The position numbers and the translations under genes are program-made. This document shows positions 21,971 through 31,251 of a DNA stretch of 64,000 nucleotides, piece after piece; the stretch's first letter is position 1, and each line of letters begins with the position of its first letter. The notes under the pieces are model-generated. The model was not told the origin of the DNA and did no database searches. It worked only from the letters and a program-made list of their open reading frames with translations. The DNA comes from Vermamoeba vermiformis (taxonomy: Eukaryota), in NCBI GenBank assembly GCA_045837725.1, contig JBEWZL010000184.1:124001-188000 (forward strand), written 5' to 3'.

Positions 21971-22547
21971 ATGGAGCCTAAAAAGCGCGGCAGACCTCCT
22001 AAGTACGTGCGTGCAAATCTTTAATGGTTATCTCTTATTTATTACTGGCGATAATTATGAATGCAATAATAATTAATAATACATTGATGTTTTAGTTATT
22101 AATCATTATTGTGGCAGAAAGAATTATTAATTCTGCCCTTAAATTAAATGAGATCTCTTTTCTCTTAGGCACAAGAACAAAGAGAGCCCCACAAGCATAA
22201 TTAGCGGCAATAACAACAATACTAATGTCAATAATAAGAATCCAAAGACAATCATTCCACCCAGATCAGCCAAAACAGCGCCACCAGGCTACTACAAATG
22301 CAAGCACAAGCACTGCCACGCGTACTGCGAGAACCAAGACATACTTCGCCGTCACGAAGAGGACTTCAAATATCATCGCCGACACTACCAAGAGCTCGGC
22401 GACAATTGCAGGATCTGTTTGCAACTCGCGACGCAGTTACTCTGGCAGCGCATTATTTCATACCGCGAATTGACTGCGCTGTCACGTGACTTGTTGAAGC
22501 TCGTGGAGACCACGCGCAACACCCCTCCGACATTGAGCGAGCAATAA
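21971..22547 (+). CDS. Small (~136 aa) AT-hook plus C2H2-like zinc-finger protein; absent from the ORF track
   Basis: Exon 21971-22002 (MEPKKRGRPP), intron gtacgt...ttag 22003-22168, and exon 22169-22547 open to TAA. Contains YKCKHKHC-x12-H-x6-H and CRIC. Confidence 0.7.
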
Positions 22548-22577: not shown

Positions 22578-25500
22578 TTACACGGCATTGACGGTGAGTT
22601 CGGAGCCCAACACGGCCTCGCGATCGCGCTGCATGTGCACATTGATCGTGCCTGCAATCGATATACCGCGACTGAGCTCGGTGACGTGCGTGATCACGAA
22701 CACTTTGCGCAGTCTGCTGGCGAGTGAGACGAGCACTTGTTGCACTTGCAGCTGACCAGTGCGATCGAGGGCATCGAACACTTCGTCGAGCATCAGGTAC
22801 TGCGGCTGATAGCGCGATCTGTTGCGCACGAGTTCGAACAGCGAGAACAGCACTGCGAGGTCCGTTCTCTTGCGCTCACCACCGCTGCGCTTGACGTACA
22901 CTTCTTCGAGCTCGAGTTCGGGGGTCAGTGTCACTGTCACTTTGCCACTGTCCGACAGCTGATCGGCATAGCTGTCCAGCACGAGATTCAGCTCTTGCAC
23001 CAGATCTGCAAAGATGAAGGAGCGCACAGTCTCAAAGCCCATGGTGCTCTTCGTGTTCTTGTCGAACGCCACTTCCCAGAACCGCGCCATGCTGTACTGC
23101 TCGGACACGTGACTGTGCTCTGCTGTCACGGCTGTCAACTGTTCGTTCAGTTGTGTGACACGTGCCTCGTGCTGCGCGATGGTCGCTGTTAGTTGATCAA
23201 TCTCCGCGGCGAGATAGTGCAATCTCCTGTCGAGATCACTGGTCTCCACCACGAGTTGGTTCTGATAGCGCAGCAGTTCGTGTTCCTTGTCTGCCAGTGC
23301 GCGCTCGACTCCTTTGATCTGTTCACTCAGTTCGAGTCGTCGTTTCATCGCTTGCACTTCCGTGCGCTCCAGCACTTCAATATCTCGCTCGATATCTCCG
23401 CGCAATTGTTGCAATATTTTGAACAGATCTGCAGAGCTACGCGTCGTGTCATGCACACCAGTGACACGTGTCAAAAACGCGTGATTTTCTTCGAGCAGTT
23501 TGGCGTGATGTGATTCGTCAATTGGTCGGCCACAGCGCGGACAATTCTTCTCGTCCAATGAGTACTCGTGCATGTGATTCAGACGCACCACTAACTCGTC
23601 GCGGAGTTGTTTCCACTCGTTCACTGAACGGCCGTTGATCACAGACGGAGTGTCACTGGCCTGTGCATTAAGATCATTTTGCCGCAATTCGATGGCACTC
23701 TTTTGCTGCGCGAGCTGTTCAATCTGCCGCTCGAGATCTTTGCGCGCATCTTCACGTCCCTCCACACGATTGCTCCTCTCTTGTTCCACTGCTTGGCGAT
23801 CAGCAGTCTTTGCACCAATTTTTTCATTAGTGTTCTTAATAGCCATATTTAGTGCCTTCAACTCTTGTTGCAGTGCAGTCTGTGTTTGCATCAATTCATT
23901 GAGCCGTGCCTCGAGTTCATTGCGCTTGTTTTTTGCGGTCTCAAAGTACGCATTGAACTTGTCGAGGCCCAGTGTCTCTTCAATAATGCTGCGCCGCTGA
24001 TCTTTGTTGCCCGACACAAAGTTGCTGACAATGTTCTGCCCGAGCACGACTGACTTGGTGAAGGTCTCGTAGTCAATGCCCAACAGCTCGTTGAGCACTT
24101 TCTGCGTCTGACTCAGCTCACCCTTCTCATTCTCCGCGAGGTACTCGGGCTCTGCATCGTCTGCGTGTCGTTGATAGGTGCGCAACACATCTGCTTTGCC
24201 GCGCTTGCGAGTGCGTTCGATGATGAAGCCGTTGTCGTACTCGAGCACCACACTGCACTCCCTGGCCTCGTCGTTGATGCAGTAGTCCTTCGCCATGCCA
24301 CTGCGCAAGAAGCCCCCGAACTGACACCACACTGCGTACATTGGTCAATAGTGCTGCTGTACATACAGTGCTGTAGTGAGTCCTACCTAGTGCCTCAAAG
24401 ATCTGACTCTTGCCGCTGCCATTCGCGCCTTCAATGATCCAAATGCCGTCGTTCATGTTCTTGAAGTCCAGGTGCACTGTGCCCTGCACGCCCATGAAGT
24501 CAGTGATGGTCAGACTGCTCAGTGTGCCGTCGAATGCCTTGCCCTCGTGCTTGTCAATGCTCTGCACGCGCGAGTCAGCCACGAGACTCTTGCCTAATTC
24601 GGTCAATGCGGCAATCTTGTCCTTGTTGTCCAACAGTCCTTCAAATCTCAGGCCCGACTTCTTCTTGCGACTTTGAGCCTCGACAAATGTCGTGTGCACG
24701 TGATTGGTGAATTCTTCGAGCAAATCATCAATTTTCTTGCTCTGCTGACTGGTGATGGCAGAATCAGTGCCCGGATTTTTGATGGCATCGACAATCTGCA
24801 CATCTTTTTTCACACCCAACACACCGAGCTCGAGCAATTCATCGACGAGTGTTTGATGTTGCTGTGGTGTGACAAACAGGTCCTCGTATTGTACCATGAG
24901 AAAGGTGTCTTTGTACTGCGCAATGTTCTGTTTGACGCGCTCAATCTCCGAGTACTTGACTTTGAAGTACTGATCGCCGTGTGGATTTTTGATGAATTCA
25001 ATCTGATCTGTCTCTGTGTCGTAGATCACTGTCACGGTGGTTAGTAGCGCACTTCACGACTCAGTTCTCAACGTACCAATGCCGCGGTCTTGTTCCGCAT
25101 CACCAAAGTTGAACTGCACTGGTGCTCCGACATAGACTACTTTATCTAGTAAGTGGTGGGCGTGAAAGTGTCCCTAAATTGACACGTGTCACTTGCAGTG
25201 TTCAAAACAAATGTCAGACAATTGACGTACCGAGAACGTTCTCTTGAGCGGATTGAACGCATCAGGACCAATGGGGCCCTTGTATCGCGAGCTAGAACTG
25301 TTTTGAATAGCTCCATTGATGGCTAAGTGTCCAAAGCCTATTGTCTTGGCCAACAACTTCTTTTTGCGCTTTTTAATGAGCTCTTCAATCTTGCCGACTA
25401 TTTCTGTTTGATCTTCGTGCTAACGGCACCATAGTTATTAATGATAGACTAGTGATGGACAACATACATAGGGCATCATGAGGCAGGAGACACCTTTGAC

Positions 25501-26315
25501 AGATGTCAATGTGAGGTCGCGATGTAATTGCACGAATTGATGGCGCAGCAGACTGTTCATGCTGAGTGCATCGAGCGACGAGATTTTAGAGGAGTGACGC
25601 CTGTCATATATGAACACATTAGTCTTGCACTCTCGTTGATGTCTGCACGCACAAATTCATGTCGTGATTGCCGAGTATGACGTGAATAGGCACGACTTTG
25701 TTCTCATCGATTGCCTGGCCCTTGCGCGCCTCTTTCAACACCTCTTCGTTCAACACCGCATTCATCTTGTCGAAGAACGACAGCGCTGAAGATAAGGACC
25801 GCACACTCACTACTTCGCGCGTGTTGAGCACATCTGCTTCGCAAATAATGAGTACTGCAGCTTGCGTATTCATATTGCTAACCTCCTAAGCACACTACCG
25901 CATCGACTTTGCGCTGCTTGAACTGCTCGATAATCCTGACCAAGGCGTGAGCACGAAGCTATTTAACCCTTTAGACCACACTTACCAGTCACCTGTCGTT
26001 GTAATGCGCTCGAGGCCTTTGTCTTGGAAATGTATATCACCAAACAGGCCTATTGTTGCATAAGAGCGGTACTGACGGGAAACTTTGGCTCGCTTAGCGT
26101 GTTCTTTTGCAGATCTCTGAATTCACAAGTCAAATTAATTGACTGTTCGACACAGTAATTTTTAAAAAATCTAACAATCTTATGCAATGATATACATGCG
26201 TGCAATAAATGCCTGGAATTACAGGGTTATTTAAATAAAAGATTTCTAAGGATCGCGATCCAGTTTGACATTTCTCAAGTCTCCTTACCACAGCACGAAT
26301 AGTTTGCCGAAGCAT
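22578..26315 (-). CDS. Fused Mre11/SbcD-like metallophosphoesterase and Rad50/SbcC-like ABC ATPase (gp47-gp46 type)
   Basis: Spliced model. Nuclease motifs: GDIH, LGD, GNHD, GHL, SGHFH, YVGAPVQFNFGD. ATPase motifs: Walker A GANGSGKS, Q-loop VVLGQ, coiled coil with CPRC hook, signature SGGERKR, Walker B/D-loop LMLDEVFDALD, VITH. First exon less certain. Confidence 0.88.
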
Positions 26316-26509
26316 TGTTCTTAGTTAATATGTACTTTGTTGTAATGGTGGGGCATTGCCGCAAATAACAGCTGTTGTTGTGGCTCTGGTGAAAATTCTG
26401 TAAAACTTCACGAAAACGTTTCATGAAATTTGAAACCAAGAACTGTTCACGGTAACAAAACCATTTTGATATCACACATTGATACAAACACCACACTTCA
26501 GAAATAAAC

Positions 26510-28170
26510 ATGGCCGACAAACTCTTCGTTGAGCAAGTTGATCTCAAGGGCAAGCGCGTTATTATGCGGTACGCAAAGTCATTCACAATTGAAATCTTAG
26601 CTTGATTTATTGTTAATAATTATTAAGGTACTATTAGGAATATTATTGCACAACTAATAGTGAAATACTTTTTCTATTCGAAAGATATTTTTGAATTAAT
26701 TATTTTAGTTAGCAAATTGCAATTATTTAAAATTACTGTATATTATGCCAGTCATTCCGCTCTTCATTGTACACTTTCAGACTAGTTGCATTTCATCTGA
26801 AAAGTTTTTCTAACACTTTGGCTTAGTGTTGACTTCAACGTACCTTTGGAAGGTGACAAAATTACCAGCAACCAACGTATCGTTGCTGCTATTCCCACCA
26901 TTGAATATTGCTTGAAGCAAGGTACTAAATATTTTTCATGAACGAATTGGATCTGACTTTTCATTCAGGCGCTAAGAGCGTTGTTTTGATGAGCCACTTG
27001 GGTCGCCCCGATGGCGTGGTCCAAAAGGAATCATCTCTTGCTCCTGTCGCCAAGGAACTCGAGAGCTTGATGAAAAGACCCGTCACGTTCTTGCACGACT
27101 GCGTGGGCCCTGAAGTTGAGGCTAAGTGCGCTGCGGCCAAGGACGGCGAGCTCATTCTTTTGGAGAACTTGCGCTTCCACCCCGAAGAGGAGGGTCAAGG
27201 CAAGAATGCTGACGGCAAGATGGTCAAGGCCGACCCTGAAGCTGTAAAGAAATTCCGCGCCTCATTGACCAAGCTCGGTGACGTCTATGTGAACGACGCT
27301 TTTGGCACTGCTCACCGTGCTCACAGCTCGATGGTCGGTGTTGAATTGCCCGTGCGTGCTGCTGGCTATTTGATGCGCAAAGAACTCGAGGCTTTGGCTG
27401 ACGCCGTTAACAAGCCCAAGAGACCTTTCTTGGCCATTCTCGGAGGGTATGTAATGAGCTGGATGAATTCAAGTTCATGTCTAATCCCCTACGCAGTGCC
27501 AAGGTTAGCGACAAGATCAAGTTGATTAACAACATGTTGGACAAGGTCGATGAAATGATCATCGGTGGTGGCATGGCCTTCACATTCAAGAAGGAGGTTG
27601 ACAACGTGAAGATCGGCAGCTCTCTCTTTGACAAGGAGGGTGCCAAGACTGTTCGCGACATAGTTGAAAAGGCCAAGGCCAAGAACGTCAAGTTGCACTT
27701 CCCCGTTGACTACGTCACTGCCAACAAGTTCGCCAAGGATGCTGAAGTCGGTGCTGCTGACGACCAATCTGGCATTCCTGACGGCTGGTTGGGTCTTGAC
27801 GTTGGCCCTAAGAGCCGCGCCATCTTCGCTGAGGCTATTGGCCGAGCTGCTACCATCGTTTGGAACGGGTAAGTTACTCTAATCACAATTAATGTCACGT
27901 GCAGTCTGTATTAACGTGTCTCTCAGCCCTGCTGGTGTTTTCGAATGGCCTAACTTCGAAGCCGGTACCAAGTCTATGATGGACGAAGCTATTAAGGCTC
28001 ACTCTCGCGGAGCTGTTGTCGTCATTGGTGGTGGTGATACTGCTACTGCTGCTGCTAAATACAACGCTGAAGATAAAGTCACTCACGTGTCTACCGGCGG
28101 TGGTGCCAGTCTCGAATTGCTCGAGGGTCGCGAACTCCCTGGTGTCACTGCTCTTTCTCCCAGCCATTGA
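26510..28170 (+). CDS. PGK: Phosphoglycerate kinase
   Basis: [42 protein letters not shown] and [15 protein letters not shown]. Confidence 0.98.
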
Positions 28171-28326: not shown

Positions 28327-31251
28327 CTACTTCGTAACAGTTAATCTAGATTGACCGTCAGTCGTTTCAATCAATTCGAAACCTCCTTGTTTGTTGTTCA
28401 GCAATGACTCGCGGTCCAAGCAGACACGCTCCAAGTCCTTGTCGGAGATGACATGATCTTCGCCCAATTCTGTCGCGTCAGTCTTCAGCAGCTCCAGCAT
28501 TTCATTCTCGGTGAACAAAGAGTTCGATGGGCCGTCGTTGTAATTGCCTTTGAACTTCTCTTTGTGAATGACCAAACGTTCAAGCTTCAACTTGGCATTA
28601 GCGCGCTGCAAAATCCAGCTGTCCACGCTATTAGCGGTGATCAAACGATAGACACAAACAGGTTTAGTTTGACCGATTCTGTGGCATCTGTCTTGAGCCT
28701 GCATGTCCATTTGCGGGTTCCAATCAGAGTCGTAAATGATCACAGAGTCAGCAGCAGTCAAGTTGATGCCCAGGCCACCAGCGCGAGTGCTCAACAAGAA
28801 AACGGAGACATTTGGATCGGTGTTGAACAGTTCAATTTGCTCTTGTCGATCAGTTTGAGCTGTGCTGCCATCAATGCGACAATAAGAATAGCCGCTGTAC
28901 TCTAAGAAGTCTTCAAGAATATCGAGCAAGCGAGTCATTTGCGAGAAGATGAGAGTCTTGTGTCCGTTTGGCAAGAGGAACTTCAACATCTTCTCGGTGA
29001 GTTCTATCTTGCCGCAGGTCTCTTTGAGGTCCTCAAGGTACTTCTCCGGATCTTCAATCACCAAAGAGGGATTGTGCTCTGCTAGTGTAGTTTGAACTTC
29101 AGCAAAGTAGCGGCGTTTGTCTTCTTTGGACTTTTCAATATAAACCTCGCGCTGCTTGTCGCTGAGTGCCTTCCATTTGGCCGAGCAGATCTTGAATAAC
29201 TCTGACATGCCAGCATCAGGGTTCTTCTTCGCGGCTTCTTTGCGTTGTTCCATGAAGTAAATCATCCAAGCAGACTTGCCACGCTTGGGCATGACTGGCT
29301 CTTTGTTTTTGGGCTCAGTCTCAGACTCGTCTTCAGGCTGTTCTTCCTCCATTTCGTCTTCCTCTTCAAGCTTCTTGAACAGCGCAATTTCATCGTAATT
29401 CAAACGACGCTTCTTTCTCAGTCTCGACTCTGGTGGATCTGCAACAGAATCAGTTAAGCTCGTTAAATCTAACCTCCAAGTTAACTTACCGGCAATCTCT
29501 TCAAGTTCCCCTCTTCTCTTTCGTTTCTTCTTGCCGCTGCCATTAGTTTCCTCACTTTTGCCGTTTTGTTTGGGCTCTTCTTCATCAAGTTCAATTTGAT
29601 TGTTTTTGAACTTCTTGTAGAAGCTGTCAAAGTCGTCGTCAAACAAGAAGGGATGATTGCACACTTTGCGCAAGTGCATGATGATGTTGAGCAACTTGAT
29701 TCTGCCACCAGCTGTATATTTGTTAGTAGACGGAATAAATTAACTCAATCTTTCAAACTTACTTCCAGCGACGATTTTCTTCCAGTCGTGTTGCTTCAAT
29801 AAGTTGTAGAAAGCCTTTTGTGCGGGCTTGAAGGGACAATACAAGACATATTCTCGCTTCTTGGGCAGATTCAACTCGACGTCGTGCTTCAATCTGCGCA
29901 ACAAGAAAGGTTGAAGGATGTTGTGCAGCTTTTGAACGAGTTGCTCGGAGATAGAGTCTTTGTTCTCTTCAACGCTCTTGCCTTCAGTCTCGCCCTTGAT
30001 GATCACTTCGTCAAAGTCAAACCAGCTCTGGAAGTTCTCCAAACTGTCGAAAATATCGGGCAAAATGAAGTTGAGGAGTGACCACAACTCGGTCAAAGAG
30101 TTCTGCAGCGGCGTGCCTGTCAACAACAATCTGTTCTCAGTGCGCAGAGCTCTCAACTCGCGAATCAATCTGCAATTAAAGTTCTTCAAACGATGTGCCT
30201 CATCGACCACCAAGTACTTCCACTGCAGCACAACAATATTAGAAACGACCCATAGCTATTGTTCGAGCTACTTACGTGGAAGCACTGCAAGAAGCGCTTG
30301 TCATTCATGGCAATGTTGTAGGAGGTAATGATAATAGGAATCTTGGGACGTGCTCCATCAGCTTTCTTTGCACGAGTAATATCATTGCGCAAAGTCTCAC
30401 GCTCAGCTTTGCTGCCGTGGTACATGACAACGGGTAGTGAAGGCGTCCTTGTAGATCGATGTCAGTACACGAACAAGAAGCACAAACTTTTAACTTACCA
30501 TTTTTGGAATTCATTGGCCCAATTGCGCAATGTAGAAAGCGGAGCTACGACCAAGAAAGGGCCTGTAATGCCTTTACCCCACAGATGCGCCAAAAAGCTG
30601 ACCTGATCGCAGGTTTTAGTTTTAAAGTATTGTTGCTGCTTAAACATACCGTTTGAATAGTCTTGCCTAGACCCATTTCATCAGCGAGAATGCCGTTCAT
30701 GCCGTTCTCGAAGAGCTGGATCAGCCAGTTGATGCCGAACAGTTGGTAGTCGCGCATTTTACCTCCAGTGACGAGTTCAGGTTGAACAGTGCGCACTAAC
30801 GATTCAGTTTGCTTTTCAGGCAGTTCTTCAAGTTTCTCTTGGAGAGACTGGGTCTGAAGATCGTGGATCAGGATCTGACACGCGATACTTGCTAGTAATT
30901 AATTAAATACCTTTTTTTGATTTTTAGGGCGACGTCCGCGGCGCTTCGTGGTGACTTCCTCTTCTTTGACCGGCTCTTCCTTTACATCCTTCGAGGAAAT
31001 ACTTATTATTTCTGTTTGCGGTGGTTTAAAAAATAAATATATACCTCTTTCGCTGGGTTAGGAACTTGGAGTTGTTGGCTAATAAATTGAGAATAAATTC
31101 TGGCTTTATCCAACAATAAATTCAGTTGTTTGAGTTTGTCAGATTCAGCAGTAATAACACCATGTTGTGGCTTTTCGTCTTCAACCTCTTCATCCTCTTT
31201 ATAGTCCGCATCATCTTCGGCTAATTTTTTAATATCGACGGCGTCATCCAT
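28327..31251 (-). CDS. SNF2-family remodeller, HELLS/LSH/DDM1-like, with inserted HMG box
   Basis: [81 protein letters not shown] and [18 protein letters not shown] box at ~29095-29295. Confidence 0.9.

Follow-up and report, generated by a model that had tools for sequence, protein, structure and literature searches.

The 64,000-nucleotide stretch of the Vermamoeba vermiformis contig JBEWZL010000184.1 analysed here (positions 124,001 to 188,000, hereafter the window, whose numbering is used throughout) contains, on the minus strand at 26315-22578, a gene that joins an Mre11-type nuclease and a Rad50-type ATPase in one frame. This fusion gene is composed of nine exons, whose 3207-nt frame encodes 1068 amino acids (aa) with no internal stops. 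Its eight introns are all GT-AG and measure 48-57 nt, except for the first one (172 nt). The coding part of exon 1 (26289-26315) encodes aa 1-9, the start of a putative presequence, and exon 2 (25986-26116) encodes its remainder (aa 10-28, down to 26060), the cleavage-like site R26-S-Y28/A29 and phosphoesterase motif I. Exon 3 (25883-25935) runs toward motif II, exon 4 (25653-25833) carries motifs II and III, exon 5 (25468-25600) shows spliced joints, and exons 6 (25231-25419) and 7 (25077-25173) carry motifs IV and V, respectively. The end of the nuclease core, the capping domain, a helix-loop-helix, a linker and the ATPase N-lobe with its Walker A (24429-24406) are found in exon 8 (24387-25028), which matches AAA_23 above the cut-off; its capping and helical elements were assigned from the AlphaFold2 model of an Echinamoeba homolog (P0164). 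Exon 9 (22578-24331) encodes the Q-loop, the coiled coil, a CPRC zinc hook (23543-23532), the signature, Walker B, D-loop and H-loop motifs and the stop, and is present only once in the V. vermiformis genome (G000: 43.3 Mb, 309 contigs).

Public contigs display spliced joints at all eight predicted introns in run X1, at five of the eight in run X2 and at one of the eight in run X4, while a raw RNA read of run X10 crosses intron 8; these four runs come from three studies, an RNA origin of the X1, X2 and X4 contigs is no more than a guess, and none of the contigs covers the whole gene. A previous sequence-only reading of this DNA had proposed one spliced frame with the nuclease-ATPase junction inside a single exon. 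The single frame, rather than two transcripts, is borne out by the position of the junction within the open exon 8, by the contigs bridging intron 8 and by the complete open reading frames (ORFs) from the transcriptomes of other amoebae, which hold the nuclease and ATPase halves together. The exon itself was correctly recognized, but its limits are 25028-24387 instead of 25035-24388. The presequence also belongs to the real first exon, as the joint of intron 1 (26116/26289) is spliced in runs X1 and X2 and no different first exon was found. The shorter side of this joint is 100 letters long in the spliced contig, from which the 5' end of exon 1 may lie near 26388 or beyond. There is an in-frame stop four codons 5' of the ATG, and between this stop and 26315 the sole ATG (26356) starts an out-of-frame upstream ORF of 11 codons; since the start of a neighbouring phosphoglycerate kinase (PGK) gene is also close by, an alternative first exon has little room. 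The differences listed for exon 9 in run X4 are all synonymous (15/15, against 22% expected at random), supporting that the gene is under purifying selection. The contigs of run X1 also carry a 3-nt insertion at 25152 in exon 7 and those of run X2 small deletions at 25967-25976, inside the coordinates of intron 2, which perhaps reflect strain variation or partial intron retention.

The encoded protein starts with a basic leader (residues 1-29), followed by the phosphoesterase core (30 to about 290), the capping domain, helices and a linker, and then by the ATPase N-lobe (about 437-610), the coiled coil around the CPRC motif and the C-lobe. All five phosphoesterase motifs are found (GDIHF at 35, GDVLN at 70, GNHD at 125, GHLA at 205 and GHFH at 239), and their metal ligands (D36/H38, D71, N126/H127, H206 and H240/H242) are invariant or nearly so in the alignments of the family described below. 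The split ATP-binding cassette (ABC) head of the Rad50/SbcC/gp46 type is likewise complete (phrog_77, E-value 7e-53), with Walker A at 471, the Q-loop at Q583, the SGGER signature at 967, Walker B at 997, the D-loop at 1004 and the H-loop at 1031. These motif positions uphold the five phosphoesterase motifs and the complete Rad50-type ATPase with a CPRC hook that had been read in the spliced frame. The hook (748-751) is located between coiled-coil arms of about 136 and 184 aa, forming an antiparallel coil with a central CxxC and without the SMC hinge, and is weakly matched by the Rad50_zn_hook profile (E-value 0.015). The ATPase part, with 632 aa, is comparable in length to those of phages T4 (560) and SP10 (667), and far shorter than E. 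coli SbcC (1048) and the RAD50 of V. vermiformis itself (about 1316). The model of P0164, a homolog 43% identical to the window protein, has a mean predicted local distance difference test (pLDDT) value of 81, with residues 1-33 under 50. It places capping-domain elements at 280-337 and a helical Rad50-binding element in the helices at 360-422, and its top Foldseek matches are Mre11-Rad50/SbcCD structures, with TM scores of 0.6-0.74 for the Mre11/SbcD chains, depending on the target. Motifs and model together suggest that the fusion protein combines the features of an Mre11/SbcD/gp47 nuclease with those of a Rad50/SbcC/gp46 ATPase.

When exon 9 was used as the query, 52 longer proteins were obtained from 8000 candidates, and the ten best all contain both the metallophosphoesterase and AAA_23 domains. 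In the family profile, 50 rows score above 480 bits, followed by a fall to 212 bits with a Bacillus phage SP10 exonuclease cluster. The closest named homolog is that of Echinamoeba, with 43% identity over the full length. Other amoebozoan members come from Pyxidicula, Cavostelium, Copromyxa, Planoprotostelium and Physarum. Discoba are represented by Naegleria lovaniensis and Andalucia, Holozoa by Creolimax and Salpingoeca, and fungi by Rhizina, Tirmania, Terfezia, Kalaharituber, Ascodesmis, Peziza and many Sordariomycetes. The word-index searches used to find homologs have a poor recall (one missed several of its own query rows), and this range must be considered a lower bound. The main tree was inferred from 62 rows and 563 columns, after dropping 12 duplicate, truncated or redundant rows, and subsets of these 62 rows were used for a C20 tree (40 rows) and an approximately unbiased (AU) test (28 rows). 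In the main tree, 43 fused rows form one clade with 100/100 support, outside which branch the MRE11 and RAD50 of V. vermiformis, E. coli SbcCD, T4, RaK2, SP10, the C. kluyveri plasmid fusion and marine fusions. Each half alone recovers the clade of the fused family (SH-aLRT 98 and 100) and neither groups with canonical MRE11/RAD50, while the tree of the orthologues follows the amoebozoan groups. Profiles and trees thus describe a broad, well-supported eukaryotic family in Amoebozoa, Discoba, fungi and unicellular holozoans, and not the sporadic oddity that had been assumed for such fusions: the window gene is one of many, with conserved predicted presequences.

The canonical eukaryotic MRE11-RAD50(-NBS1) complex has folds and motifs in common with the window protein, but its MRE11 and RAD50 are separate genes, with a longer coiled coil and 17-19% identity. 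Indeed, V. vermiformis encodes its own canonical MRE11 and RAD50 as separate genes on contig C11 (G000:C11), and TIGR00583 and TIGR00606 match these other loci and not the fusion gene, which is therefore not their orthologue. The family also falls outside the SbcC clade of canonical bacterial SbcCD, and P0164 does not reach the cut-offs of TIGR00618 (89.5 vs 478.5 bits) or TIGR00619 (34.6 vs 77.65). A Lamassu LmuB profile matches only the ATPase head of P0164 (E-value 2.5e-29), and no LmuA- or LmuC-type effector adjoins the gene, whose neighbours are PGK, VPS16 and RPAP1 in the host and DnaB, an exonuclease and RuvC in phage, as opposed to what is expected for a Lamassu system. The T4-type gp47/gp46 (PHROG 100 and 77) shares the domain set, the domain order and a short coiled coil with a central CxxC, and phage relatives of this type sit in replication modules. 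In contrast to T4 gp47/gp46, the window protein is a single chain with eukaryotic introns and an N-terminal leader, with 23-28% identity to T4 and SP10. The core identity is 21% with E. coli SbcCD.

The true sister of the family is not T4 but a clade of uncultured large phages in which the gene is also fused. The phage-type alignment has a full-length match in an IMG/VR record of 220,489 bp with direct terminal repeats (L010/G001), a complete tailed phage encoding terminase, portal, baseplate proteins, endolysin, DNA polymerase, primase and a UvsX-like recombinase. Its PHROGs annotation covers 75 of 86 ORFs of at least 230 aa, from 200 of the 220 kb; terminase and portal were found by PHROGs, while the Terminase_6N profile gave no match in this record. 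In this phage, the genes of a DnaB helicase, a 5' exonuclease and a RuvC-like resolvase flank the fused gene, an order repeated in a metagenome contig. The window protein is 49% identical to the phage fusion in the nuclease and 42% in the ATPase heads. The 19 leaderless proteins of the family all start at the first strand and all keep the hook; genomic context was examined for two of them, and the others are called phage-type by clade. Among the ten look-alike clusters listed from the ESM Atlas, the eight with a taxon record are all viral. No close phage was found for the 220-kb record in GenBank, and it represents an undescribed large-phage clade. It also contains an ORF of 3994 aa (L155:4181-16162), and most of its large ORFs have no PHROG match.

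Free trees join the phage clade to the amoebozoan one as its sister (100/98 with 62 rows and 99/99 under C20 with 40 rows). Nevertheless, the AU test does not reject a single eukaryotic clade (log-likelihood 0.89 lower, p 0.49). The transfers between phages and eukaryotes may thus have comprised one early gain, several gains or a return to phages. Since every outgroup close to the family is of a phage gp46/47 type, an origin in phages is preferred, with large tailed phages, and not bacteria, as the donor side. Therefore, of the viral- or bacterial-type source proposed in the sequence-only reading, the viral alternative would hold and the bacterial one would not. Among GTDB genomes, none of the 54 stretches retrieved with the phage-type alignment contained a relative, and the eukaryotic alignment gave distant partial SbcC/SMC matches (best E-value 3e-16), with no alphaproteobacterium among the 79 loci listed. 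An endosymbiotic, alphaproteobacterial donor is not supported by these pattern scans, which are not exhaustive. A co-transfer of the whole phage module was also considered and rejected, the RuvC, exonuclease and DnaB of the phage being unmatched in the V. vermiformis genome with single-protein queries.

The N-terminus is Arg-rich and nearly free of acidic residues, with the cleavage-like site, as had been read from the sequence (R6, K3, E1 and D0 in the first 32 aa). The amphipathic leader, encoded from the spliced first exon, has a net charge of +7 in 25 aa, a hydrophobic moment of 0.82 and RSYA at 26, an R-2/R-3-type site; this 28-aa segment would be imported and cut near R26-S-Y28/A29. By a heuristic presequence rule fixed after the sequences had been seen (at least 3 Arg, at most 1 acidic residue and net +3 in the first 25 aa), 15 of the 18 named or EukProt eukaryotic members pass, with Sordariomycete-type rows counted separately, against 14 of 1013 internal windows and none of 70 prokaryote-type matches. 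The three members failing the rule still have basic leaders, and that of Naegleria contains an RRFH motif. The Andalucia member (ANDGO_03038), which belongs to the family with an E-value of 6e-151 and 34-36% core-domain identity to the window protein, is listed as predicted mitochondrial, of unknown function and with P = 63 in the accessible part of the supplement of PMC7050145. The Dictyostelium fusion Q8T663 (AbcH.3) is included in a mitochondrial compendium of 936 proteins, where it is filed under carriers and channels, and is enriched in pure mitochondria, with an RER of 0.603 for a cut-off of 0.392 (PMC9118663, as far as available). Its orthogroup partner in Acanthamoeba, ACANB07858 (1119 aa), is found in AcMitoCarta and in the mitochondrial complexome, where the accessible data show MRE11 and RAD50 to be absent from AcMitoCarta (PMC13632651). 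In addition, V. vermiformis has a single bacterial-type RecA (L159:1079-1620, on G000:C127), whose upstream open frame begins with an Arg-rich leader and which is probably the mitochondrial RecA. The same genome contains at least seven loci of family-A DNA polymerases (PF00476; on C89, C239 in two places, C166, C284, C260 and C298), more than usual, of which those on C284 and C260 resemble a pair of paralogues.

Several observations weigh against a mitochondrial, phage-derived enzyme. The mitochondrial localisation and the nuclease activity of the window protein are predictions from sequence, and the presequence rule is post hoc. Q8T663 and ACANB07858 are likely orthologues by domain order, length and lineage only, and their orthogroup, in the accessible tables, also contains an unrelated human coiled-coil protein. 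The targeting score of Q8T663 is 'OTHER' in the available part of PMC9118663, and no match to the family motifs was obtained in the accessible FASTA supplement of a Dictyostelium list refined in 2026 (PMC13648671), where the protein may have escaped detection, been reassigned or be spelled differently. The family is also heterogeneous, since the CxxC hook is found in none of 40 Sordariomycete-type members, whose median leader is 7 aa; these fusions (P0011-P0055) form a remodelled and perhaps relocated branch, unlike the Pezizomycete members, which keep both hook and leader. Finally, the single-protein queries mentioned above recovered none of the neighbouring phage genes in the V. vermiformis genome.

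Taking these points into account, the gene probably encodes a phage-derived single-chain Mre11-Rad50 (gp47-gp46) enzyme of the mitochondrial matrix, processing the ends of mitochondrial DNA (mtDNA) for RecA-dependent recombination and repair. By analogy with Mre11-Rad50, SbcCD and gp46/47, two mature chains would pair into the equivalent of the M2R2 head, with a nuclease dimer, two ATPs between the heads and the zinc hook at the tips of the coil, and the two-metal nuclease would be gated by ATP binding and a free DNA end. It could then trim or open broken, blocked or hairpin mtDNA ends into 3' single strands, to be passed to the bacterial-type RecA, which would use them in recombinational repair or in recombination-dependent replication, a part that gp46/47 plays for UvsX in T4. 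The latter role is suggested by the phage context (DnaB, exonuclease, RuvC and UvsX) and by the presence of a host RecA. The fusion would also allow a single gene and a single presequence to deliver both subunits at 1:1.

The same targeting evidence would also serve for a destructive mitochondrial enzyme clearing linear, damaged, hairpin-ended or foreign DNA, such as mitochondrial plasmids or the mtDNA of one parent, comparable to SbcCD on palindromes or gp46/47 in host-DNA breakdown. T4 gp46/47 is indeed annotated for both recombination and host-DNA degradation, and the ATPase half resembles LmuB. Nevertheless, this resemblance is generic to Rad50-like heads and comes with no Lamassu effector alongside, the phage context is that of a replication and recombination module and a RecA partner is present, making this role unlikely. 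Less probable still, and improbable in our view, is a nuclear or cytosolic nuclease, acting for instance against giant-virus DNA, with the basic N-terminus as a nuclear signal or DNA-binding tail. The score of Q8T663, the refined Dictyostelium list and the Sordariomycete members without a long leader would agree with it, but the leaders of Amoebozoa, Discoba and Pezizomycetes present R-x-Y/F-S/A/T/H type motifs and alternate hydrophobic and basic residues instead of forming Lys clusters, and likely orthologues are found in the accessible parts of two mitochondrial proteomes. A role on invading DNA, offered in the sequence-only reading beside one on mtDNA, is now the weaker option of the two. 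We regard as very improbable a structural role, in which the protein would organise the mitochondrial nucleoid in an SMC-like manner and its nuclease would be incidental: the ATPase, coiled coil and hook are complete, and Acanthamoeba is without TFAM/Abf2 in the available part of PMC13632651, but all metal ligands are retained across the family alignments. Finally, only the phage genes as nearest non-eukaryotic relatives could point to a contaminant or to a recently inserted viral sequence with no function in the host, which is scarcely credible for a single-copy gene with eight spliced introns, housekeeping neighbours (PGK, VPS16 and RPAP1), strain differences that are synonymous only and an orthologue tree following the amoebozoan groups.

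The surroundings of the gene are those of a eukaryotic chromosome. The window shows short GT-AG introns, and the neighbours of the fusion gene are PGK, VPS16, RPAP1 and an SNF2 helicase. The fusion gene is oriented head-to-head with PGK (plus strand, ATG at 26510), from which it is separated by an intergenic stretch of 194 bp (26316-26509), the divergent start codons being 195 bp apart. Contig depth is some 30-50 times greater for PGK than for the fusion gene, and any promoter shared by the two genes would therefore be strongly asymmetric. On the other side, a small spliced and transcribed gene (22152-22547, plus strand), with an Asn-rich stretch and a Cys/His cluster, is convergent with the fusion gene. 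The SNF2/HELLS-like helicase gene (28327-30900, minus strand) has an HMG box (HMG_box, E-value 4e-16) inserted before its Helicase_C domain.

The architecture of Mre11-Rad50 fusions is already known. Yoshida, Claverie and Ogata (2011; PMC3175470) described 13 of them as polyphyletic and proposed a viral origin, including mimivirus R555, Dictyostelium Q8T663, a Polysphondylium protein, a moss-diatom-prasinophyte group and plasmid fusions, as given in the accessible text. The window protein shares with them the order of nuclease and ATPase, the position outside the canonical clades and the presence of canonical MRE11 and RAD50 in the same genome. In contrast, fungi, discobans and holozoans are absent from their set in that text, and targeting to organelles is not described there, 'mitochond' appearing once, on MutS7. 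Their C. kluyveri fusion falls outside our family, and R555, Q8T663 and the moss-diatom-prasinophyte fusions were compared by description only. The Andalucia member is a direct relative already predicted as mitochondrial but filed under unknown function, and the main text of PMC7050145, as available, makes no mention of SbcC, SbcD, Rad50 or Mre11 for it. In the literature searched, with most subscription papers outside its scope, we found no paper on a mitochondrial, phage-related SbcDC/gp47-46 fusion family. What seems to be new, as we did not find it in print, is the recognition that Mre11-Rad50 fusions with predicted presequences form a broad family in eukaryotes, whose sister group lies among large phages.

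Several phage-derived enzymes maintain mtDNA, namely the T7-like RNA polymerase, the Twinkle primase-helicase and polymerase gamma, which are nucleus-encoded and presequence-bearing. Their source is T-odd phages and their tasks are transcription and replication, whereas the fusion would stem from the recombination module of a large myophage. We tentatively propose, as a possible scenario only, that early eukaryotes, possibly before the last eukaryotic common ancestor (LECA), took a fused gp47-gp46 gene from large myophages and turned it into a mitochondrial Mre11-Rad50, the end-processing partner of the mitochondrial RecA. It would have persisted in Amoebozoa, Discoba, ichthyosporeans, choanoflagellates and some fungi, whereas animals and yeasts would have lost it, and in Sordariomycetes it would have been remodelled with loss of the hook.

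In most eukaryotes, the nuclease that readies broken mtDNA ends for recombination has yet to be established, and this family, which has members in tractable organisms, offers a concrete candidate for many protists and for some of the fungi. The inventory entries 'ABC transporter AbcH.3, carriers and channels' and 'unknown function' are probably DNA-end nucleases. Structural studies would also gain a simple model, as this Mre11-Rad50 is a natural single chain whose coiled coil is short. What mitochondria owe to phages would reach past the T7-like enzymes, the sister group being a specific clade of uncultured 200-kb phages. If the gain was early, the family would represent a further phage-derived pillar of mtDNA maintenance, coming from a group of phages other than the T-odd ones.

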